The notes under the pieces are model-generated. The model had not been told where the DNA came from, did not search any database, and was given only the letters and a program-made list of their open reading frames with translations. The position numbers and the translations under genes were made by a program. Shown here piece by piece: positions 421 through 19,107 of a stretch of DNA of 32,000 nucleotides. This DNA is from Candidatus Electrothrix sp. GW3-4 (GTDB taxonomy: Bacteria > Desulfobacterota > Desulfobulbia > Desulfobulbales > Desulfobulbaceae), in NCBI RefSeq assembly GCF_037902255.1, contig NZ_CP147990.1, forward strand, positions 1,890,001 to 1,922,000, written 5' to 3'. Within the stretch, counting starts at the first letter, position 1. Each line of letters begins with the position of its first letter.

Positions 421-1368
421 TCATTTCAAATCCTTATTACACTCCATATCAAACCACATAGCAAACAGTGTAAATAAACTAGAGCTCATAAAGGAAAACA
501 TGGCTGCCAAGGTATTGATAGGAGGAAGATGCCCATCAATACCGAGATAAATAAAGGCACGGACAGTCAGAATAAAGCCAAAAAACAAGAAGAGCCCTCC
601 AAGAAAATAAAAAAAGATGAGCGGATGAAAATCACGAATTATGTATTTTTCCACCATCCTTCTCGTAAAGCCCTTAACAAGGATCAAGGGAATGGTACAG
701 AGCACTTTTTTCACCTTAATACCGGAGACTTCTCCCACATTATAAACTGGTCGTATTGAGATATCCCTGACCCGAAAATTGGCAATATTCAGACTGATCA
801 GAAGATCATTGGGCATTCCGTAGCGCGGATAGATTGCCTCCAGATCAAGAGCCTTCAATGCCTGCAATGAGATGGCGGTATATCCACTCTGTGAATCAGC
901 CACATGCCAGTACCCTGAGGCTATCTTAGTAAACAAAGAAAGAAAAGAGTTGCCGATATAGCGATACTTGGGAATCATCCCCCATGACTCACCGCGAAAC
1001 AGCCGATTACCCTTTGTGTAATCGCATTCCCCCCTACAGACAGGCTCTAAAATTCTCGGCAGATCTTCCGGGTCCATCTGAAAATCAGCCGCCATGACAG
1101 CAGCCACATCTACCTGTTGATCCCGGGCCCAGATATATCCCGTTGCAATGGCTGCCCCGACACCTCGGTTCCGCTCATGTTCAAGGCAGACGATCTTCTT
1201 ATTCGCTGTTGCCAACGCCTGGACAACAGCCACGGTCTGGTCTTGACTGCGGTCGTCAACCACCACGATAATGTCCACATAGTTGGGCATGGTCTTGATG
1301 ACCTTTCCGATGAGTTTTTCCTCGTTATACGCAGGAATGACAACGGCTATTTTCTTTTCAAGGTGCAT
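421..1368 (-). CDS. Family 2 glycosyltransferase (dolichyl-phosphate sugar transferase-like) with C-terminal TM helices
   Basis: 315-aa ORF with an ATG at 1368. The N-terminus KIAVVIPAYNEEKLIGKVI...VVVDDRSQDQT is the classic GT2 (GT-A fold, DxD-type) signature. The C-terminal hydrophobic stretch is FFYFLGGLFLFFGFILTV. Confidence 0.85.
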   Translation of the reverse strand: MHLEKKIAVVIPAYNEEKLIGKVIKTMPNYVDIIVVVDDRSQDQTVAVVQALATANKKIVCLEHERNRGVGAAIATGYIWARDQQVDVAAVMAADFQMDPEDLPRILEPVCRGECDYTKGNRLFRGESWGMIPKYRYIGNSFLSLFTKIASGYWHVADSQSGYTAISLQALKALDLEAIYPRYGMPNDLLISLNIANFRVRDISIRPVYNVGEVSGIKVKKVLCTIPLILVKGFTRRMVEKYIIRDFHPLIFFYFLGGLFLFFGFILTVRAFIYLGIDGHLPPINTLAAMFSFMSSSLFTLFAMWFDMECNKDLK

Positions 1369-1764: not shown

Positions 1765-4323
1765 ATGACAACAGATCAGGAAAATAACTCGCCCGAACTC
1801 CACACCGTCGGCATTGAACAGGAGCTGCGCAAATCCTATCTGGATTATGCAATGTCCGTTATCGTTGGTCGGGCCCTGCCCGACGTTCGCGATGGTCTGA
1901 AGCCGGTGCACCGGCGCACCCTATACGCTATGCGGGAACTGGGCAATACCCATAATCGCCCCTATGTCAAATCAGCCAGGATTGTCGGTGATGTCATCGG
2001 TAAATATCATCCCCACGGCGACTCAGCTGTCTATGACACCCTGGTACGAATGGCTCAGAATTTTTCCCTGCGCTATCCCTTAGTTGATGGCCAGGGAAAC
2101 TTTGGTTCTATGGACGGCGATCCACCAGCCGCTATGCGTTACACCGAAGCACGCATGACCCGGCTGGACCAGGAGCTTGTTGCCGATATCGAAAAGGAAA
2201 CCGTTGATTTTATACCAACATATGACAACTCGCAGCTGGAACCCACGGTTCTGCCTTCTAAGATTCCCAACATCCTGATCAATGGGTCCGAGGGTATTGC
2301 GGTGGGTATGGCCACCAAGATCCCGCCGCATAATCTGACCGAGGTCATTGATGGCCTGATCGCCTTAGTAGATGATCCAGATCTTTCTGTGCATCAGCTG
2401 ATGCACATTATTACCGGGCCGGATTTTCCCACAGGAGGTTTTATCTGCGGACGGGCCGGGATTCGGGAGGCTTATGAAACCGGGCGCGGTGTCATTATGA
2501 TGCGGGCCCGCATGCATGTCGAAAAAAAGAAAAAAAGCGGTGAGGCCATTGTGGTCACAGAGATTCCTTTTCAACAGAACAAGGCCAAATTGGTCAAGAA
2601 AATAGCCCTGTTGATGAAGGAAAAACGGATCACCTCCATTGCCGAGGTACGTGATGAATCGGATCGCCACGGCCTGCGCGTGGTCATGGATCTCAAAAAA
2701 GACGAAATCCCGGATGTGACGATCAATCAGCTGTTCAAGATGACACCGTTGCAGAAAAGTTTCGGCATCATCATGCTCTGTATTGTCAATAATAAGCCGG
2801 AGATCCTGAACCTGAAAGAGGTATTGGTTCATTTTATCGAACATCGGCGCACAGTGATCTATCGACGCACCGCCTTTGAACTGCGTAAGGCCGAAGAACG
2901 GGCCCACCTCCTGGAAGGACTGAAAATCGCTTTAGACAACCTTGATGAAGTTGTTCAACTCATCAGGGCCTCTTCCAGTCCAACAGAGGCCAAGATCTGT
3001 CTAATGGAACGCTTTGAGCTCTCCGAACTCCAGGCCCAGGTTATTTTAGATATGCGTCTGCAAAAGCTTACAGGCTTAGAGCGCGATAAAATTATCCAGG
3101 AATACACGGAAATCATGGAGCGTATTGCCTGGCTCAAGGACGTGCTCTCAGATGACGTCTTGGTCATGCAGCTTATTCGGCAGGAATTTGAAGCGGTTCG
3201 GGAGCAGTACGGAGATGAGCGTCTGACCGAGATCATTGACGCGCCTGATGAAATCTTACCCGAGGATATGATCACTCCAGAAGAGATGGTGGTGACGATC
3301 TCTCATCATGGCTATATCAAGCGCAACCAGTTATCCCTGTATCGGGCCCAGCGCCGAGGCGGTAAAGGTGTCGCCGGTATGGCGGCTGTAGACGATGATT
3401 TTGTCACGGATCTCTACACCGCCTCCACCTTGGACACCTTTCTCTTCTTTACCAATAAGGCAAGGGTGTTCTGGCGCAAGGTATATGAGTTGCCCATGGC
3501 CGGACGCACGGCACGGGGCCGGGCTGTGGTCAATCTTCTTGAGCTGGCAGAAGGAGAAAAACTGGCCACGATTCTCTCGGTACCCAACTTGGCTGAGGCA
3601 GATGAGAACTATACCATCCTGACGGTAACCAAGAAAGGTCGGGTGAAGAAAACCAGCATTGCCGAGTATAAACGGCCGGTACGTAAGGGCAAGCTGGGAC
3701 TGACCATTAAGGATGACGATGAGATGCTCTGCGCAGCCATAACCGCTGGTGATGATCATGTCTTCCTGGTAACAAAAAAAGGCCTTTCCATCCATTTTCA
3801 TGAAGACGATGTTCGGACTATGGGCCGCACTGCTGCTGGCGTAAAAGGGATCACCCTTGCTGACGATGACGAGGTGGTCGCAGCAGTTGTCCTGAAAAAT
3901 CATGAAGAAGAAAATTCCATTCTCACGGTCACGGAAAACGGCTTTGGCAAACGAACAGCGGTGTCTGATTACCGCCTTCAGAAACGGGGCGGCAAAGGTA
4001 TCTTCGCTATTAAGTCCAGTGAACGGAATGGGATGGTGGTCGGGGCACTCCAGGTAGTGGATGACGACCAGGTTATGCTTATCGCGGATTCCGCCAAGGT
4101 TATCCGGCTCCCTATGGACTCCATGCGGATTATAGGACGCAATACCCAGGGCGTCAAGATGATCAATCTTAATGAAGGCGAGAAGGTCGTGGCGCTGTCC
4201 ATGCTGGCTCGTACTAATGATGAGATCGACGAGGAGAACGACGACGAAGGTATCTTGACTGATGACAGGCTAGACACTGAGCAGGATACTGATAAGGGGA
4301 CAGATGGAACTCCAACCGATTAA
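1765..4323 (+). CDS. gyrA: DNA gyrase subunit A
   Basis: ORF 1591..4323. The conserved GyrA N-terminus ([59 protein letters not shown] with the catalytic Tyr) begins just after Met59. I therefore moved the start to ATG 1765. C-terminal beta-pinwheel repeats and an acidic tail are present. Confidence 0.95.
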
Positions 4324-5323
4324 ACAGATAGCGGTTATCGGGGCGGGCAGTTGGGGAACTGCCCTGGCCAAGCTCTTGGCGGATAAGGGAGAGCAGGTTC
4401 TTCTTTGGAGCCATAGGGCCGAGCATGTGGATGCCCTGCGTCGGGATCGGGAGAATCGGAAATACCTGCCCGGTGCTGCCTTGCCGACCAATCTGCTGGC
4501 AGTGAACACCTTTGATGACCTGCCCTCCTGTCAATGCCTGGTCATGGCCGTGCCCTCCCATGGGTTCCGTGAGGTGTTCAGCAAGCTCATCCCCCGAATC
4601 CAGGAGGGAACCTTTCTTGTCTCGGCTGTTAAGGGGATTGAGGTCGAGACTGGCCAGACCATGTGTGAAATCATGCAGCAGGAACTTGCCCGGCAGAACA
4701 GAGCAGGAACTCTGTTCGCCGGGGTGCTGAGCGGCCCCAGCTTTGCCGATGAGGTCGCCATAGGCCAACCCACTGCCGTGACTGTGGGCTTTACGGACAA
4801 CAGGGTGGCCCAGGCGGTCCAACACCTCTTCTCAACATCCTTTTTCAGGGTCTACACCAGTTCAGACACCATTGGTCTGGAGATCTCTGCGGCCATGAAA
4901 AATGTGATCGCCATTGCGGCCGGTATTTCCGACGGCTTAGGCTACGGACTGAATACGCGGGCCGCCTTAATTACCCGGGGGCTGGCAGAAATCACCCGTT
5001 TAGGCACCGCGCTCGGAGCTGATCCACTCACCTTTTCCGGTCTTGGAGGCCTGGGCGACTTGGTCCTGACCTGTACTGGCAGCCTGAGCCGTAATCGGAC
5101 AGTAGGACTGAAGCTCGGCGAGGGCCGTACCCTGGAACAGGCCCTGGCAGAGATGACAATGGTTGCTGAGGGGGTCAAAACGACAAAATCCTGCTATAAT
5201 CTGGCCGCCACGGTCGGCGTTGAGATGCCCATTCTTGAGCAGATCTATCAGATTCTCTATAAAGATAAGCCCTGCCGAGATGCTGTTCAGGATTTATTCG
5301 GGCGGAGCCTGAAAGAGGAGTAA
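4304..5323 (+). CDS. gpsA: NAD(P)H-dependent glycerol-3-phosphate dehydrogenase
   Basis: 339-aa ORF. It has the Rossmann motif [14 protein letters not shown], plus [18 protein letters not shown] and [20 protein letters not shown], which are typical of GpsA. It overlaps the gyrA stop by 20 nt. Confidence 0.9.
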
Positions 5324-14082: not shown

Positions 14083-14086
14083 GTGG

Positions 14087-14213
14087 GCTTGGTTCTAAGT
14101 TTGGCCAATAGATTTACGACTGACACTTGGGAGAATAATAAGACTGTAAAATCAAGCATATTTACCTGGCAACACAGGTCGATCCAGCTAGGTGGCCGGA
14201 GTTAGAACCAAGC
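14087..14213 (+). repeat. 127-bp imperfect palindrome (degenerate solo attC-like or MITE-like element)
   Basis: The terminal arms are GCTTGGTTCTAAGTTTGGCC (14087-14106) and GGCCGGAGTTAGAACCAAGC (14194-14213). They pair over 20 positions with one mismatch and two G-T pairs. The right arm contains GTTAGAA (a GTTRRRY-like core), and the left arm contains TTCTAAG instead of the expected TTCTAAC. The element is bracketed by CATTGAGTGGGC at 14077-14088 and 14216-14227. Confidence 0.4.
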
Positions 14214-14367
14214 TCCATTGAGTGGGCATTGAAGCTGTCATGGGGATAATCTTGTGAATGAAAATATGCGGCGGTAGGAGAAGGAGTGAAAACGGTGCGA
14301 TCCCTAGCCTGTTTTCCATTTTAGCCTCTGTATATCATGATAAGAGGAAAAGCGGAGGTACAAGTTG

Positions 14368-14480
14368 ATAAGTGGAAACAGTTTCCACTTTTACTGCCTC
14401 AATATCTGAATAAGTGGATTTTTGCGGAATATATTACGGTCAATAGCAGGACAGTTTTCCACTTATTAATACTGTTAGCC
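14368..14480 (+). promoter_or_regulatory. attI-like junction or operator region: four copies of ATAAGTGGAAA followed by the crossover core GTTAGCC
   Basis: The four copies are ATAAGTGGAAAC (14368-14379, +), its inverted partner GTTTCCACTTTT (14381-14392), ATAAGTGGA (14410-14418, +) and TTTTCCACTTAT (14455-14466, inverted). The core GTTAGCC at 14474-14480 is the exact reverse complement of the R'' box (GGCTAAC) of the attC that closes the first cassette. Confidence 0.5.
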
Positions 14481-14495
14481 ATATAAGAGAGAGAA

Positions 14496-14855
14496 ATGGA
14501 TAATTCATTGTCACGTCAAGAAATTGTTGAGCTACTAGCAGATTTTGTTAGGGGGGCAATCAGCGAAGAGGATGATAAATACGTCGTAACAGTGACAAGA
14601 CGCGAATCTTCAATTCAGCTACATGCGTACTTTTCAGAAATTGATGAGCTTTCTCGAACATTATCTAGTCTTGAGGTTAATGATGAAACAGCTCTATATG
14701 GAGATACGCGGTATGAGATCATTGTAAGAGAAGAGTCCGTTGGCCCCATGCGTCGCATGAGGGAAGATAAGATTGAAGTACATAATGAAGAAAATGGCCT
14801 TGTTTATGAGCTTTCATCAGCATCAGATGAGTATCTAGTGCTCTGTAAAAGCTAA
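14496..14855 (+). CDS. Hypothetical acidic protein (119 aa); either the N-terminal part of the downstream HEPN-like gene or a separate partner
   Basis: This is the first ORF of cassette 1, with its ATG 15 nt after the GTTAGCC core. I recognise no family. The frame of the next ORF opens at 14849, only 4 nt before this ORF's stop (14853-14855), within and after an AAAA run (14847-14850). Confidence 0.5.
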   Translation: MDNSLSRQEIVELLADFVRGAISEEDDKYVVTVTRRESSIQLHAYFSEIDELSRTLSSLEVNDETALYGDTRYEIIVREESVGPMRRMREDKIEVHNEENGLVYELSSASDEYLVLCKS

Positions 14856-14908
14856 AATTTAGGATTGGTCGTTTCCGTAATTGTTCCATCTTTCGATTTG
14901 GTCCGGAA

Positions 14909-15883
14909 ATGGTAACCCTAAAATTTAGTCATGACTTAGCACTAGTTTGGCTTTTGAATGAAATTAAGCAAAATTTATCCTCAAGAGATTTTAGGTTAGG
15001 TTTTTACTATAGCCCAAGAATTGACAGATATTTAGATGAAGAAGATGAGGCAAATCTGATAGAGTTCATACGCTTAACGTCTTTCAGATTTCTGACACTA
15101 AAAATAACATCAGACAAAAAACATAGCCCTTTACAATATTCTAGGCTTACTCATGCATTCTTGTTCCACATCGGATTTAATCTAGACATAGCGTTGGTTC
15201 CTCAAAGGCTTCTAGAAGAAATTGCTAGAAGAGGAAGAATTACAAGAATGCGCCGCTCCAGGCCCGACGAAATTGATCCGCCTCGAAGGATATATAACGA
15301 GGACTTAGTTCAACATTATCTCCTTGCTGTATCTACTGACAATCCAGTTATTGAATTTCTCTCGTATTATCATGTGCTAGAGCACTTTTATGAAGCAGTA
15401 TTTAATGATGACCTGCTGGAAACAATCAAAGATAAAATTACTGATCCTGGGTTTTCATATAAACGAAAGAAGGATATCGGACAGTTAGTCAGCACTATAA
15501 AGCGTTCTCTTCAAATAAGAAGTGAAACCATTACATTCAGTGAAAGTGAAGCATTGAGGCTTTGCCTGCAAAAATATGTCGTGCTTCCTGATCTTATTTC
15601 AAAGCTGGAAGAATACGATGAGACTCTTTTGGATTATTACAGGTCCACGAAGGTAGAATTTTCAGGTGGTACTGAGGTGGATATTGAAAATACTGAAGAA
15701 GAAACAGTCTTTAAGTCACTGACTAAACGTATTTATTCTACAAGAAATGCCCTTGTGCATAGTAAAGACGGCGATAAGTCAAAATATACACCATTTAAAG
15801 ACGATAGAATATTAGTGAAAGAAGTTCCACTAATGAGGTTTATTTCTGAAATGGTTATTTTGCAAGAGTCAGTGGTTCAATAA
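14909..15883 (+). CDS. HEPN-like (Rx4H motif) putative RNase, ApeA / MAE_18760-like architecture
   Basis: 324-aa ORF. The C-terminal KRIYSTRNALVHSKDG contains R-N-x-L-x-H, the HEPN Rx4-6H catalytic motif. The upstream helix region FLSYYHVLEHFYEAVF resembles HEPN nuclease families I recall (Apea-like, MAE_28990/MAE_18760-like). There is no convincing SD before ATG 14909. Confidence 0.55.
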   Translation: MVTLKFSHDLALVWLLNEIKQNLSSRDFRLGFYYSPRIDRYLDEEDEANLIEFIRLTSFRFLTLKITSDKKHSPLQYSRLTHAFLFHIGFNLDIALVPQRLLEEIARRGRITRMRRSRPDEIDPPRRIYNEDLVQHYLLAVSTDNPVIEFLSYYHVLEHFYEAVFNDDLLETIKDKITDPGFSYKRKKDIGQLVSTIKRSLQIRSETITFSESEALRLCLQKYVVLPDLISKLEEYDETLLDYYRSTKVEFSGGTEVDIENTEEETVFKSLTKRIYSTRNALVHSKDGDKSKYTPFKDDRILVKEVPLMRFISEMVILQESVVQ

Positions 15884-15884
15884 T

Positions 15885-15992
15885 GGCTAACAAGGCAAAT
15901 TCACTCGGACAAATTTCCGCAACGTTCGTTTGTGCTATGAATAGCACAAGCCTCACGTCGCTTCAATTTGCCGGTGATTTTCGGCGTTATGT
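15885..15992 (+). repeat. attC recombination site (attC-a, 108 nt)
   Basis: The layout is: R'' GGCTAAC (15885-91), spacer AAGGC, L'' AAAT(T)CAC (15897-904), stem CGG(A)CAAATT (15906-15) / AATTTGCCG (15965-73), central hairpin TTGTGCTA-tgaa-TAGCACAA, L' GTGATTT (15974-80), spacer TCGGC, R' GTTATGT (15986-92). Bases in brackets are unpaired (extrahelical). The site starts 1 nt after the stop codon. Confidence 0.65.
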
Positions 15993-16035
15993 GCTTAACC
16001 AAACTATGCCAAATTGTTAATAATTTAACAGGTGA

Positions 16036-17862
16036 ATGATTATGTTTTTTGCTGAATATTCTCGACGATTATTAAATTTAAAGCAGATATGGTTACTTGT
16101 CATACCATTGTTAACTGGTATCGTTTTCACGCCAAATGTTAGCGCAAATATAAACCCACTTTCAATTATTGTTGATGATTATTCTCCAACTTCAACTTAT
16201 CGCAACTGGTATTATAGTCGAATTGGAACTGATAGGGGTGAGATGGGGGCAGATAATTATAATGTCATCATTGGTGGTGGAACTGCATCAGTTAATGTGA
16301 CAACTGGATGGGCTGGAGTCTGGACAAATTTAATGCACCTTGGAGGAGATACTTTAAACCCTACTCAATTATTAGGGCCTTATGTTAAACAAGAATATCA
16401 AGCTCAAGTCGTAGGTATTGAAATTGATATTCTCGATGGTTCAGGCACATTAAAGATTGAGTTAACTAATCAAATTGGCACACCGATACATACTAATTTG
16501 TTTTCATTGACAGGAGGAGAACAAACTTTAAGTTATCAAGTAAATCCTACAGAACCTCTAAAATCTCTCAATTGGTTGGTCGATGGTCCGGGTCATGTAA
16601 TTGTTGATGAAATCAGGCTAATGATTAATGCACCTGACTATCAAACCAAAGAAGCTATTTTTTTATTTTCCTACAGTCACCTTTCACAATGTTACGATGA
16701 TGCAACAGGACTTGTGAGGGACAGAGCGCGTTGGCCTGTAGAAGATTCAGCAGCGGTTCAATCTATAGGTATGTTTGCTCTTGTAACAGCTGTTGCTTAT
16801 GATTTAGGTTTTGTAGAGGAAAATATTGCTAACGCGATAGTAAATAAAACAAAAGAAAGACTTGGGTTGTTGCCAACATACAAAGGTTTGCTTCCTCACT
16901 TCTTAAAGAATGGGGATATTGCCCCAAATACAGAATGGTCAAGCGTAGATACTGTTATTGCGTTAGTTTCAAATATACTGGCAGCACAATCTCTTAATAT
17001 TGAAACGTCCAGTTTAGAATCAATGTTAACAGATATTGATTGGAGTGATTTATCTAATGGATTTACTGGCGGAATAAGCATGGGTTATGACTATTCTAAG
17101 GTTAAAATAACGAATACATGGGACACATTTGGCTCCGAGACTTTTCTTTTAGCTGTAGCATATGCTGCCGCTACCACTGGGAAAATAGCCATAATAGAGC
17201 AATATCCAAATAAACCAACATGGGATGGCTCTGGCTTTAATGATGAAATGGCAACATTATTCTTTCCAATGACCGGAAGAGATTATTGGGGAAATGACTG
17301 GAACAACTACAGGTGTTCAGCATTTAAAAAACAGTATGCATATTTTTTAAATAATAACACTTATTCTGACTTGGGTTTATTTGGGTTAAGTGCCTCGGAA
17401 GTACCAGAAAAATGGGCTGTTGCAAATGACGCAGATCATTATGCTGCATGGGGGGTTGGTGGGCATAACGGAGCAGCTAATGATGGAACTACTGTTGCGG
17501 GCTATCCTATAGTCGCACCACACTATGCTGCTTTAACCTGTAATGAACATTCCGCTTCCTGTGAAAAACTTTTTGAATTTATTGCATCAAATAATATTTT
17601 TACACCTTTAAACAATGTTGAATCATGTGGCATTACAGGAAGTGCGCTGAAATGGAGTTCATTAAAAGGATCATGGAATCTTGTGCTACAGGCACTCGGT
17701 GTAGGCAGGGCATTATCTGGGGTTAACTTTGTGTCATACCTGGCCCTGAAACAAAATAATTTCTTGTTAAATGGCTATAATTCAATTTTTACAGAATATG
17801 GTAAACCTTGTTCGTTCGTAATTCCACCTGGTTTGATTTTTCTTTTAAACTCCAACGAGTAA
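16036..17862 (+). CDS. Secreted (alpha/alpha)6-barrel glycoside-hydrolase-like protein (GH144 / DUF3131 'glucoamylase-like' family) with an N-terminal beta-rich domain
   Basis: 608-aa ORF with a signal peptide (…LLVIPLLTGIVFTPNVSA|NI). The order of blocks is GLVRDRARWP, SIGMFALVTAVAYDLGFV, LLPHFLKNGD, SSVDTVIALVSNILAAQ, DIDWSDL, FGSETFLLAVAYAAAT, GLFGLSASE and IVAPHYAALT. This order parallels what I recall of the PF10091/GH144 endo-beta-1,2-glucanase fold. The start may be ATG 16042, which has better spacing to AGGTGA. Confidence 0.6.
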   Translation: MIMFFAEYSRRLLNLKQIWLLVIPLLTGIVFTPNVSANINPLSIIVDDYSPTSTYRNWYYSRIGTDRGEMGADNYNVIIGGGTASVNVTTGWAGVWTNLMHLGGDTLNPTQLLGPYVKQEYQAQVVGIEIDILDGSGTLKIELTNQIGTPIHTNLFSLTGGEQTLSYQVNPTEPLKSLNWLVDGPGHVIVDEIRLMINAPDYQTKEAIFLFSYSHLSQCYDDATGLVRDRARWPVEDSAAVQSIGMFALVTAVAYDLGFVEENIANAIVNKTKERLGLLPTYKGLLPHFLKNGDIAPNTEWSSVDTVIALVSNILAAQSLNIETSSLESMLTDIDWSDLSNGFTGGISMGYDYSKVKITNTWDTFGSETFLLAVAYAAATTGKIAIIEQYPNKPTWDGSGFNDEMATLFFPMTGRDYWGNDWNNYRCSAFKKQYAYFLNNNTYSDLGLFGLSASEVPEKWAVANDADHYAAWGVGGHNGAANDGTTVAGYPIVAPHYAALTCNEHSASCEKLFEFIASNNIFTPLNNVESCGITGSALKWSSLKGSWNLVLQALGVGRALSGVNFVSYLALKQNNFLLNGYNSIFTEYGKPCSFVIPPGLIFLLNSNE

Positions 17863-17894
17863 AAAGGAGAGTTCAGCTTAACAGAGTCATCATC

Positions 17895-18016
17895 ACATAA
17901 CCAGTCGCTGCACCCGACCCGCTAACATCGGCGGAATTCGGATTGAAATTCAGGCTCCCGTCCCGCTTCGGGCATCGCGGTGATGCGGCGGCGGGCGCGT
18001 GAGCTTGGTGTTATAC
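17895..18016 (+). repeat. attC recombination site (attC-b, 122 nt)
   Basis: The layout is: R'' ACATAAC (17895-901), spacer CAGTC, L'' GCT(G)CAC (17907-13), stem CG(A)CCCGC / GCGGGCG, GC-rich branched centre (CCCG-cttc-GGG, GCATC-gcggt-GATGC), L' GTGAGC (17999-18004), spacer TTGGT, R' GTTATAC (18010-16). ACATAAC is the exact reverse complement of the preceding R' GTTATGT. Confidence 0.6.
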
Positions 18017-18026
18017 TGAATAAAAA

Positions 18027-18866
18027 ATGAATAATCACAAACCATTGTCATTTCAGTTGTCTACAAGTTCCTATGGCTATGTTAGGGCAATACCACTACT
18101 ACTTGCTAATGAGGTAAATTCTGAACTAGAACGTTGGTTTCAAAATTATAAATTATTATTCACTGCCATAAATAACCTAAAAGAAAGTGATTTCCAAAAA
18201 CATCTTCAACTTGAGTACACATATACTAGAAGAACCTTGCCTGTAAGAAAATATGATCAAATAGTTTCCGACGTAACAACTGAAAGCGATCTTCTCAACT
18301 ACCACCAACTCATTAAAATAATACATAAATATATTGAATTGTCTTACCGTATTTACAAATCACTCAAGGAAAAGAAAATAGGCACAAATATCACTGATTT
18401 TGAAAAACATATTGATCAAATTTGCTTGAAATTTCACAGGTCAAACTTCCCCAACAAACTCAACACCATATATGCAGACTTAAAACTGACTGATAATCTT
18501 GGGTATCTAGAGCAAATTAATAGAGTTAGAAATTGCTTGGAACATCGGTCTGGAATCGTATCGGAGAAAGACTGTGATGAAAATAAAAATTACATGTCAA
18601 TTAAATTTCGCTATCCTAAAATCTCAACTCCTTCTGGTGAATTCTCACCAACGTCTGACATAAAAGGAAAACAGAATCATTCAATAATATTCGAGGATGA
18701 AGTTATTAAATTTCGTTTAAATCAAAAAATCAATTTTGGTTTTGATGAAAACACTAAGCTATTGTTTTCGATAAACATTTGTTTCAAATATATCATTGAT
18801 GGCATTTACGACTTAATGAAAGTAGACCAAACTCAAACTGAAACCATAATAAGAGAAATAAAATAA
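18027..18866 (+). CDS. Hypothetical protein with a HEPN-like Rx4H motif (second putative RNase)
   Basis: 279-aa ORF that is the sole ORF of cassette 3. LEQINRVRNCLEHRSGIV contains R-N-x-L-x-H, the same spacing as in the cassette-1 protein. The flanks are helical and K/E/N-rich. I recognise no other family. Confidence 0.5.
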   Translation: MNNHKPLSFQLSTSSYGYVRAIPLLLANEVNSELERWFQNYKLLFTAINNLKESDFQKHLQLEYTYTRRTLPVRKYDQIVSDVTTESDLLNYHQLIKIIHKYIELSYRIYKSLKEKKIGTNITDFEKHIDQICLKFHRSNFPNKLNTIYADLKLTDNLGYLEQINRVRNCLEHRSGIVSEKDCDENKNYMSIKFRYPKISTPSGEFSPTSDIKGKQNHSIIFEDEVIKFRLNQKINFGFDENTKLLFSINICFKYIIDGIYDLMKVDQTQTETIIREIK

Positions 18867-18930
18867 GTATAACCAGCCAATAAACGCGGACCCGCAAACA
18901 GCGCGCGGGCCGGTTATCGCAACGTTAGGG
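18867..18930 (+). repeat. attC recombination site (attC-c, 64 nt)
   Basis: The site starts directly after the stop codon. The layout is: R'' GTATAAC (18867-73), spacer CAGCC, L'' ATAA(A)C, stem CGG(A)CCCGC (18887-95) / GCGGGCCG (18905-12), L' GTTAT, R' GTTAGGG (18924-30). GTATAAC is the exact reverse complement of the preceding R' GTTATAC. Confidence 0.6.
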
Positions 18931-19107
18931 GCGGCAGGAATTCCTGTGGGTGCATCCGCAGTTTGAGACGGAGTATTGATGCTACATGCTATGCAGAGAT
19001 GCAGAATGATAAACTGAAAAAAAAGCACTACCTGCTGCGCGGACAAAAATATTTCTGATTATCTTAAAAACCCTCATAACCCACTCAAAGTATACAACAC
19101 CAATAAT

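Follow-up and report, generated by a model that had tools for sequence, protein, structure and literature searches.

A probable integron platform lacking its integrase gene in the chromosome of Candidatus Electrothrix sp. GW3-4

The window analysed here, a stretch of 32 kb from the chromosome of Candidatus Electrothrix sp. GW3-4, contains an array of three gene cassettes located between an AdoMetDC-like gene and a conserved gene for a protein of 360 amino acids (g360). The block formed by the array (14474-18930) is AT-rich, as stated in an earlier preliminary description of this DNA, with a GC content of 0.31-0.43 versus about 0.50 in the flanks. Very probably, a chromosomal integron has lost its integrase gene (intI) by deletion here, and the block is its cassette array. 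What the array retains is the whole intI-attI intergenic region with attI, three cassettes made of one gene and one attC site each, and the original right half of attI (from 18924).

The attC sites and the closure of the cassettes

The three attC sites lie on the plus strand, with spacings of 1.9 kb and 0.85 kb: attC-a (15885-15992, 108 nt; R'' GGCTAAC, R' GTTATGT), attC-b (17895-18016, 122 nt; R'' ACATAAC, R' GTTATAC) and attC-c (18867-18930, 64 nt; R'' GTATAAC, R' GTTAGGG), which is the last site of the array. A covariance model (R2), built from 16 full-length attC sites of other loci and from none of the window, was run with filters off on both strands of the whole 32 kb. Exactly three matches with E<1e-5 were obtained, all of them on the plus strand and exactly at the coordinates given in the preliminary description. 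The scores were 35.8 bits for attC-a (E=1.7e-6), 41.4 bits for attC-b (E=7.6e-8) and 37.5 bits for attC-c (E=6.5e-7), that is, E values of 1e-6 to 1e-8, and the next best match in the window scored 10.2 bits (E=2.3). The training candidates of R2 were gathered by a crude stem-scoring scan, together with the closure rule, applied to arrays of other genomes. In the MAFFT alignment of the raw attC sites (alignment A3) the 3' side was out of register, and the right spacer was normalised from 6 to 5 nt. The training helices covary: in an alignment of 17 mini-sites that overlaps closely with the R2 set (A5), 92% of the cells were paired, versus 29-45% with a slid partner, and 12/17 pairs were changed on both sides.

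An independent model made from trimmed mini-sites (R1) recovered attC-c alone (34.2 bits, E=2.2e-5), the short site, because long variable loops are penalised by it. A looser stem-scoring scan ranked the three sites at the top, modestly above background only. With Rfam, nothing in the window reached the gathering thresholds; the best score was a chance match to CRISPR-DR6 (E=0.075), and no attC family turned up. Concerning the layout of the sites, a canonical attC, e.g., that of aadA7, is composed of R'' (..TAAC), a spacer of about 5 nt, L'' with an extra base, a stem in which the A of CGG(A)C is bulged, a variable loop, L', a spacer of 5 to 6 nt, and R' (GTTR...). Compared only with this general scheme, the sites of the window family, 58 to 131 nt long, show the same layout, but the R'' and R' boxes of the window deviate from the strict consensus. 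A scan for RYYYAAC...GTTRRRY recovered 0/3 sites because of the deviation of the boxes GGCTAAC, ACATAAC and GTATAAC.

When the bottom strand of attC-a was folded with DNA parameters, the canonical shape, with the R box, the unpaired spacer and the L box with its bulges, was the minimum-energy fold (-21.6 kcal/mol, z=-3.75), compared to -19.4 kcal/mol for the top strand. The bottom strand was more stable than the top strand in all three attC sites. The stems drawn in the preliminary description were right in their sites and coordinates, but some unpaired or mismatched bases had been omitted from them (T15905 in attC-a, a C/C mismatch in attC-b and an extra G in attC-c).

The circular-closure rule was then considered for each cassette. 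The sequence GTTAGCC at 14474 pairs with GGCTAAC at 15885 (cassette 1), GTTATGT at 15986 with ACATAAC at 17895 (cassette 2), and GTTATAC at 18010 with GTATAAC at 18867 (cassette 3). As AAC/GTT, 3/7 positions, are fixed by the definition of the sites, there are four informative bases per cassette. The joint chance of the three closures is from about 2e-4 ((1/16)^3) to 6e-8 ((1/256)^3), with free positions that are compositionally biased. So, it can be said that the rule holds in 3/3 cassettes, and that the evidence is smaller than implied by the "7/7" of the preliminary description but still strong. Closure chains between successive sites occur also in other arrays (loci used for comparison are designated here by L numbers), namely those of L004, L008, L052, L058, L065 and L071.

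Every attC of the window has a counterpart with 81-92% identity on a different cassette elsewhere (among L036, L071, L065 and L006). For instance, attC-a is 87% identical to L071 4757-4864, and attC-c is 92% identical, over 49 nt, to the attC of a different cassette of E. aarhusensis (L006). It follows that unrelated cassettes have families of attC sequences in common.

The attI region, the missing integrase gene and the locus in related lineages

Concerning the left end of the array, about 165 nt of the window, from the intI start codon (TTTTCCAT on the plus strand, 14312-14319) to the G|TT crossover, are homologous to intI-bearing loci, with identities of 70-87%. In blastn comparisons, the attI region of the window was 84% identical to the intI-linked attI of GW3-4 itself (L064/L065), 87% to L014, 86% to L063 and about 74% to L021. 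When metagenomes were scanned with the 19-mer adjacent to the crossover, 48 contigs were obtained, many of them 70-93% identical to window positions 14312-14478, and in several of these contigs the homologous stretch adjoins a divergent gene of 331-335 amino acids that matches TIGR02249 with 405-435 bits (cutoff 265). Between species, the homology stops precisely at ...AATACTG|TT. On the other side, an alignment of ten loci (A7) is informative: to the left of TTTTCCAT, L064, L014, L063, L021 and L059 continue as IntI coding sequence, while the window, L008, L005, L052 and L058 switch after TTTTCCAT to ...CCTAGCC(T/C)G (...CCTAGCCTG), which is unrelated to intI. The same junction is carried by L004 (alignment A1).

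What remains of intI in the window are its first 8 nt (ATGGAAAA; 14312-14319, minus strand, start codon 14319-14317), with the breakpoint between 14311 and 14312. Nothing of a local intI pseudogene beyond ATGGAAAA was found by tblastn and six-frame reading of 14083-14345. The homology of the attI region and the intI start, with the 8-nt remnant, indicates therefore that the integrase was removed by deletion. To judge from homology, the region 14320-14480 (plus strand) is the intI-attI intergenic region with the attI of a platform whose integrase was deleted, one of the possibilities considered in the preliminary description, which is thus borne out by the homology of 14312-14480 to intI-linked loci and by the ATGGAAAA remnant. 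The crossover is placed, also by homology, at G14474|T14475 within GTTAGCC (14474-14480). This core site had been correctly noticed before, but it is not an isolated one, being the crossover of a recognisable attI. The earlier statement that no integrase lies near the array was confirmed over the 14.4 kb on its left side and the 13 kb on its right side, as no large open reading frame (ORF) of the window gave a Phage_integrase match in Pfam and tblastn with two IntI proteins was empty.

The attI region contains repeated sequences (14368-14466). The 9-mer ATAAGTGGA is present at 14368-14376 and 14410-14418 on the plus strand, and at 14458-14466 on the minus strand, beside the crossover. A perfect palindrome, GTGGAAA-CAG-TTTCCAC, occupies 14372-14388, and there is an inverted pair at 14365-14378/14456-14469. 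The repeats and the palindrome are invariant, or nearly so, in ten loci with and without intI. They are candidate protein-binding sites, which could be either accessory sites for IntI or an operator over the intI promoter.

An intact integrase is present elsewhere in the genome. The protein IntI P0122, accession WYD82742.1, with Ca. Electrothrix sp. GW3-4 as its source name, gives a full-length match to TIGR02249 (433 bits) and is encoded in the same sequencing run (SRR28154588) as a window-identical contig. Its locus (L064/L065) has its own attI and its own array, with at least 4 attC matches. Since its neighbour genes are not in the window, this locus is a separate one and lies, on whichever side, at a distance of more than 13 kb from the array. 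Among the homologues of the metagenomic IntI, the nearest ones are annotated as integron integrases and come from Ca. Electrothrix species, including E. aestuarii, E. communis and sp. GW3-4. Likewise, in the metagenome-assembled genome (MAG) JBATKL01 one contig has an orphan attI that follows AdoMetDC (L005), and a different contig has an intact intI (L063). In E. aestuarii, intI adjoins a Pat-like acetyltransferase gene, as in L014; a second conserved integron locus in the Electrothrix genus is suggested.

The synteny AdoMetDC...g360 is found in Electrothrix with an intervening stretch of 1.4-7.3 kb that is without the cassette genes of the window. A platform is located there in the window, E. 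laxa (L004), E. aarhusensis (L006), E. marina (L008), L052 and L058; in L005 it comes directly after AdoMetDC, and the contig stops before g360. A noncoding stretch of about 200 nt after the AdoMetDC stop is near-identical in the window, E. marina, E. laxa and the MAG locus L005. It ends exactly at ...TTCCACTTATTAATACTG|TTAGSC, and each species diverges beyond that point. The breakpoint ATGGAAAA|CAGGCTAGG is common to the window, L004, L005, L008 and L052; it has one base changed in L058, and it is recognised in L006 up to an insertion sequence (IS). By this comparison of junctions, at least six Electrothrix lineages besides GW3-4 have the same intI-less platform at the locus. The seven arrays located there have no cassette in common, and their similarity is at the attC level only. 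The alignment of related genomes agrees with the cassette-level variation expected in the preliminary description: the block is not conserved, the arrays differ entirely between species, and there is neither platform nor array at the locus in L003, L007 and L009, where R2 finds none, but finds arrays in relatives.

The orphan attI is 92-95% identical between the integrase-deleted species, compared with 82-91% for AdoMetDC and 78% for g360. Gene conversion from the intI-linked copy does not explain this conservation, because that copy is only 84% identical within the same genome. The first cassette starts precisely at the attI G|TT where the junction is intact (window, L008 and L052), the junction being altered in L004, L005 and L058.

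On the right end of the array, the conserved flank (18924-18983, plus strand) begins exactly at GTTAGGG and corresponds to the ancestral attI's right half, joined to chromosomal sequence. In alignment A2, the window, L008, L004 and L006 are alignable again exactly at GTTAGG(G)GCGGCAGGAATTCC (GTTAGGGGCGGCAGGAATTCC...), with 95-98% identity, and positions 14-58 of the flank occur in the array-less L007 too. The divergence that starts at the attI crossover and the realignment at its right half are the signature to be expected from an attI with inserted cassettes. A noncoding element of 45-60 nt (GCAGGAATTCCTGTGGGTGCATCCGCAGTTTGAGACGGAGTATTG; 18937-18983 in the window and 15160-15204 in L007) is 89-98% conserved, above the neighbouring genes. 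It contains the palindrome CAGGAATTCCTG and has no match in Rfam. As it is present in the array-less L007, this element is chromosomal and not integron-derived.

Some additional observations were made at the same locus and in related contigs. In E. laxa, an insertion of about 280 nt (L004 11900-12178) lies between the repeats of the orphan attI, and in E. aarhusensis a DDE_Tnp_1 transposase (IS) is inserted at the intI-deletion junction (L006 11828-13105). In E. gigas, palindromic repeats TTCCAC-TGTA-GTGGAA (L009 11790-11960, after AdoMetDC) replace the attI platform; they consist of the GTGGAA/TTCCAC half-sites of the window attI in the opposite arrangement, and a segment of 61% GC that contains a TPR-like ORF comes after them. 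In E. marina, the first cassette (L008 4890-10558) lies between GTTAGGC and GCCTAAC; with 5.6 kb it is of unusual size for an integron cassette, and it contains two large ORFs (581 and 1180 aa) without Pfam match; it may be a multi-gene system. Other cassettes of the relatives code for patatin-like, 8xMP and pYEATS-domain proteins. In L067, a degenerate copy of the platform (3300-3545) shows CTGTTTTCCATG as in the intI-deletion junction and then ...GCATGGAAAGTTTCTATTTATTAATACTG|TTATAC, and there is a second attI-like core (TTCTTATTAACATTGTTAGCA; 4620-4660) downstream of the cassette; R2 found no full attC in L067. A further platform in decay, or an arrangement of the type attI-cassette-attI, may be represented by it. 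In the metagenomic loci L019, L020, L041 and L055, the intI matches are split over frames or segments, with apparent frameshifts, and a frequent decay of the integrase in this integron family is suggested.

Cassette cargo and neighbouring sequence

Cassette 1 (14475-15986, plus strand) starts with TTAGCC, has GGCTAAC as R'', and is formed by one disrupted gene plus attC-a. The gene (14496-15883, plus strand) is a pseudogene composed of the ORFs 14496-14855 and 14909-15883. The preliminary description had counted four ORFs in the array. There are in fact three genes, as ORF1 and ORF2 are the halves of one gene of 426 aa split by an insertion of about 104 nt. The homologues of ORF2 have 426 aa, are 85% identical to it, and their N-termini match ORF1. 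With tblastn, 14496-14840 matched residues 1-115 of the homologue P0329, and 14855-15880 matched its residues 92-426 in a different frame. The cassette coordinates 364-467 (window ~14838-14941) are missing from four homologous loci (L071-L074). The inserted element (14838-14941, about 104 nt) resembles a miniature inverted-repeat transposable element (MITE), with imperfect terminal inverted repeats (14835-14866/14914-14945) and CTAGT on both sides, and because of it the Logan contigs L001 and L002 break at window positions 14864 and 14916. A 29-nt match to its right end was found in L067 (6746-6774), and the element may be multi-copy in the genome.

Two other interpretations of this part of the cassette were rejected. 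ORF1 and ORF2 were considered as a two-gene cassette, either Dazbog-like or of the toxin-antitoxin type, but they are one gene split by the insertion. The inverted repeat between them (14835-14945) was considered as an attC remnant, but it has no R2 match and belongs to the inserted element as its terminal inverted repeat. Toxin-antitoxin cassettes were not seen in the array of the window.

The cassette-1 family is DzbB-like and MauJ-like, with a C-terminal RNxxxH motif (RNALVH in the window) of which R381, N382 and H386 are invariant in the family alignment. Against PADLOC, it matched DzbB (E=1.6e-15) and, weakly, Cas13-ApeA (E=9.5e-4). The match to DzbB is partial, as residues 127-298 align with profile positions 183-316 of 341. 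A complete Dazbog system (DzbA plus DzbB) is not present, since no match to DzbA was obtained and ORF1 represents not a partner but the N-terminal part of the same gene. Against Pfam, MauJ scored 26.6 bits (cutoff 28) and HEPN_Apea gave sub-threshold matches (E=0.08 to 0.004). The AlphaFold model of the protein (mean confidence score, pLDDT, of 78) had no structural match in PDB.

Cassette 2 (15987-18010, plus strand; closure TTATGT/ACATAAC) contains a gene at 16036-17862 (608 aa) and attC-b. The N-terminus of the protein is a hydrophobic segment that is read as a putative signal peptide. No family was assigned by Pfam, NCBIfam or PADLOC, and the homologues form 352 representative clusters, often as one domain within larger proteins. 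Cassette 3 (18011-18924, plus strand; closure TTATAC/GTATAAC) contains a gene at 18027-18866 (279 aa) and attC-c. Its family has an invariant INRVRNCLEHR motif and 41 homologues with about 60% identity, some of them source-named Sulfurovum or Sulfurimonas. Neither a family match nor a profile relation to the cassette-1 family was found for it, and its AF2 model (pLDDT 88) gave no match in PDB with Foldseek. Sequence searches of PDB with the three cargo proteins yielded nothing meaningful. The preliminary description had mentioned HEPN-like motifs in two cassettes; this is partly supported for cassette 1 by the invariant RNxxxH and the sub-threshold matches to ApeA-type HEPN, but for cassette 3 there is just the RNCLEHR motif.

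An intact homologue of cassette 1 is found in L071 with the same boundaries (start TTAGCC, R'' GGCTAAC), in an array of at least 5 attC matches with flanks of 62% GC. In L067, a homologue of cassette 3 begins at G|TTATAC with an attI-like core next to it, and GTATAAC comes after it. From these sequence comparisons, the genes of cassettes 1 and 3 occur as cassettes elsewhere and appear to be mobile units.

Concerning the chromosomal surroundings, the flank genes of the window are ordinary chromosomal ones, among them gyrA, gpsA, comEC, and those for a Kdo transferase and an M18 aminopeptidase, and also the AdoMetDC-like gene, a radical-SAM/B12 enzyme, a methyltransferase, yaiI and recN. The closest relatives of the M18 aminopeptidase are in Candidatus Electrothrix genomes (79-87% identity). 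The cassette proteins P0137 and P0328, with Ca. Electrothrix sp. GW3-4 as source name, are 100% identical to window ORFs, and window-identical contigs are present in the Logan assemblies of SRR28154588-90. Immediately 3' of the AdoMetDC stop codon there is an insertion of about 134 nt (14083-14216) that is missing in all relatives. It has terminal inverted repeats (14087-14107/14193-14213) that are 86% complementary, and the direct repeat CATTGAGTGGGC brackets both ends; it looks like a MITE, with a sequence unrelated to the insertion of cassette 1. At the left end of the window, positions 1-500 have a GC content of only 0.31 and adjoin a family-2 glycosyltransferase gene (421-1368, minus strand); they may be the edge of another acquired region.

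State of the orphan platform and comparison with known integrons

According to established integron biology, an integrase acting on this platform would bind the folded bottom strand of the attC sites, would excise cassettes by attC x attC recombination, and would insert cassettes in circular form at G14474|T14475 through attI x attC recombination. With no local intI left, the enzyme would have to come from the second, complete integron of the chromosome, i.e., it would be IntI P0122 acting on the orphan platform. The cassette turnover between species would have taken place at the orphan attI by this action in trans, and the cassettes may be transcribed from a candidate promoter in the attI region. 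The presence of an intact IntI in GW3-4 supports such a service in trans without proving it. It seems reasonable to lean, by a little, to the interpretation that the orphan platform has continued to be served in this way. With respect to the dilemma posed in the preliminary description (a cluster of attC sites served in trans or an integrase that was deleted), the deletion, the attC cluster without intI and the intact IntI of the genome are established, but the service in trans is deduced from them. A more elaborate proposal, held with slightly more doubt than belief, is that of a two-site integron, formed by the IntI locus, with its own attI and array, and by an integrase-free docking platform at AdoMetDC/g360, with IntI loading and unloading this platform in trans and with the platform (attI, regulatory repeats and array) under purifying selection. 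If this is true, cassette capture would be spread over two chromosomal sites and would have persisted through Electrothrix speciation.

Several points weigh against these interpretations. The action in trans is deduced from comparative data, with no recombination event observed. The own attI of the GW3-4 IntI differs by 16% from that of the window, including the crossover-proximal repeat (CCATTT versus CCACTT). A consensus scan of 14320-14480 gave no convincing sigma-70 site, with no excess over shuffled sequences, for a cassette promoter. The canonical fold, which is the minimum-energy one in attC-a, is sub-optimal in the other two sites: the canonical hairpins of attC-b and attC-c are 0.8 and 4.3 kcal/mol, respectively, above the minimum-energy fold, and in attC-b, where the forced R box gives -22.2 versus a minimum of -23.0 kcal/mol, the L box competes with pairing in the variable region. 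The covariation statistics are partly circular, because the training sites were picked by a stem-score/closure filter and six-base spacers were trimmed to five, although the R2 matches in the window are not circular. Besides, the orphan attI region was hit by insertions in some relatives, cassette 1 is a pseudogene with a MITE-like insertion, which fits an array long untouched, and both whole-locus homologous replacement through the conserved flanks and differential loss from a larger ancestral array could give the same pattern of differences.

The last points lead to the view that the array is a fossil, dead since the loss of the integrase, and that the arrays differ by whole-locus homologous recombination, for instance following natural transformation, or by differential loss rather than by IntI acting in trans. 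This is unlikely, but it has to be taken seriously. It would account for the interrupted gene of cassette 1 and for the insertions in the platforms of L004 and L006, the flanks are conserved enough for homologous exchange, and in Xanthomonas a common intI lesion usually goes with identical arrays (10.1101/2025.06.18.660453). It does not account for the first cassette beginning exactly at the attI G|TT wherever the junction is intact (window, L008 and L052), for the conservation of the orphan attI above that of the neighbouring coding genes, or for the intact IntI genes with homologous attI in the same genomes. With zero cassettes common to seven arrays, differential loss would need a very large ancestral array, and whole-locus exchange would still need donor arrays assembled at attI with the same deletion.

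The remaining alternatives would change the origin of the array. A split integron, in which the array would be the cassette part of the single integron of the genome, parted from intI by inversion or translocation, is highly improbable. Rearrangement is listed as a source of such clusters, half of which are in IntI-encoding genomes (PMC4889954), but the GW3-4 intI has its own complete attI and at least 4 attC (L064/L065), and two attI regions that are only 84% identical are paralogous copies and not two halves. Moreover, the intI start codon and the entire intergenic region kept in the window indicate a deletion and not a breakpoint at attI, and an intI-less locus is found at the same chromosomal position in seven lineages. 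It is scarcely credible that the cassettes were placed by an integrase at a secondary, non-att site (attG), giving a cluster without platform. IntI can insert cassettes outside att sites according to bioRxiv 10.1101/2022.09.11.507474, but the full attI and the intI-promoter region with the intI start codon, with about 165 nt of homology to complete integrons, contradict this origin. Finally, almost no credence can be given to the idea that there is no integron and that the sites are generic palindromic intergenic repeats (like repetitive extragenic palindromes, or terminators) in an AT-rich acquired island. The sites each come right behind a stop codon, the scan of the minus strand took one of them as terminator-like, and 2/3 are without canonical minimum-energy fold; against this stand the R2 matches on the plus strand only (E 1e-6 to 1e-8), the closure in 3/3 cassettes, the adjacent attI homologous to complete integrons, and the finding of the same genes as cassettes in other arrays. 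The preferred reading is thus that of a chromosomal integron with a deleted integrase.

Concerning its classification, the element is a CALIN (clustered attC sites without an integron-integrase), a known kind of element, and no new mechanism is involved. To be a CALIN, an element needs at least 2 attC sites in the same orientation, with neighbours less than 4 kb from each other, and must have intI nowhere in the 4 kb around them (Cury et al. 2016, PMC4889954). The three attC sites of the window are clustered in this way on one strand, and intI is missing from the 4 kb on either side. Compared to a complete integron, there are attC-bounded cassettes, an attI recognised by homology only, and no adjacent intI. 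Compared to a sedentary chromosomal integron, the locus is the same across the genus, but there are three attC sites and no local intI instead of more than 19 attC sites with their own integrase. Among the scenarios named for CALINs is that a genome with several integrons loses the integrase of one of them, about half of CALINs are in IntI-encoding genomes, and 95% are without recognisable intI remnant (PMC4889954). GW3-4 is like that half in encoding IntI elsewhere. It is different in that the window keeps a complete attI, the intI-promoter region and the start codon, with a breakpoint mapped to the base and a deletion fixed across several species. IntegronFinder knows the attI of classes 1-3 only, by exact match, and would not annotate that of the window; tools limited to class 1-3 attI would overlook such attI-bearing CALINs as platforms.

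The literature search found no report on integrons in cable bacteria, judged by titles and term counts, and this appears to be the first description of the integron content of these organisms, with a complete integron and a second, integrase-less platform. The established understanding of integron function is unchanged by it. Its interest is that of a clean natural case for the question of whether integrase-less arrays are dead remnants or still used, a case made testable by the shared base-mapped breakpoint, the retained and conserved attI, the complete turnover of the arrays and the candidate trans-acting IntI in the chromosome. It yields also three uncharacterised families of cassette genes, one of which resembles the defence protein DzbB.

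The array resembles the Vibrio-type sedentary chromosomal integrons in being species-variable, in the family resemblance of its attC sites, and in its promoter-less, single-gene and mostly uncharacterised cassettes, and the DzbB-like cassette recalls the anti-phage cargo of those integrons (bioRxiv 10.1101/2024.07.02.601686). It differs from them in having three cassettes without adjacent integrase, and in that the DzbB-like gene is broken, its defence role being putative. In Xanthomonas, a genus-wide integron at ilvD, repeated loss of intI and CALINs at conserved loci have been described (Gillings et al. 2005, as reported in 10.1101/2025.06.18.660453). The likeness to Electrothrix lies in an ancestral platform at a fixed locus of the genus, an integrase inactivated repeatedly or long ago, lineage-specific arrays and CALINs at conserved positions. 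The difference is that a shared intI lesion in Xanthomonas usually means identical, frozen arrays, whereas in Electrothrix the shared deletion is accompanied by entirely different arrays and by a second, intact integron.

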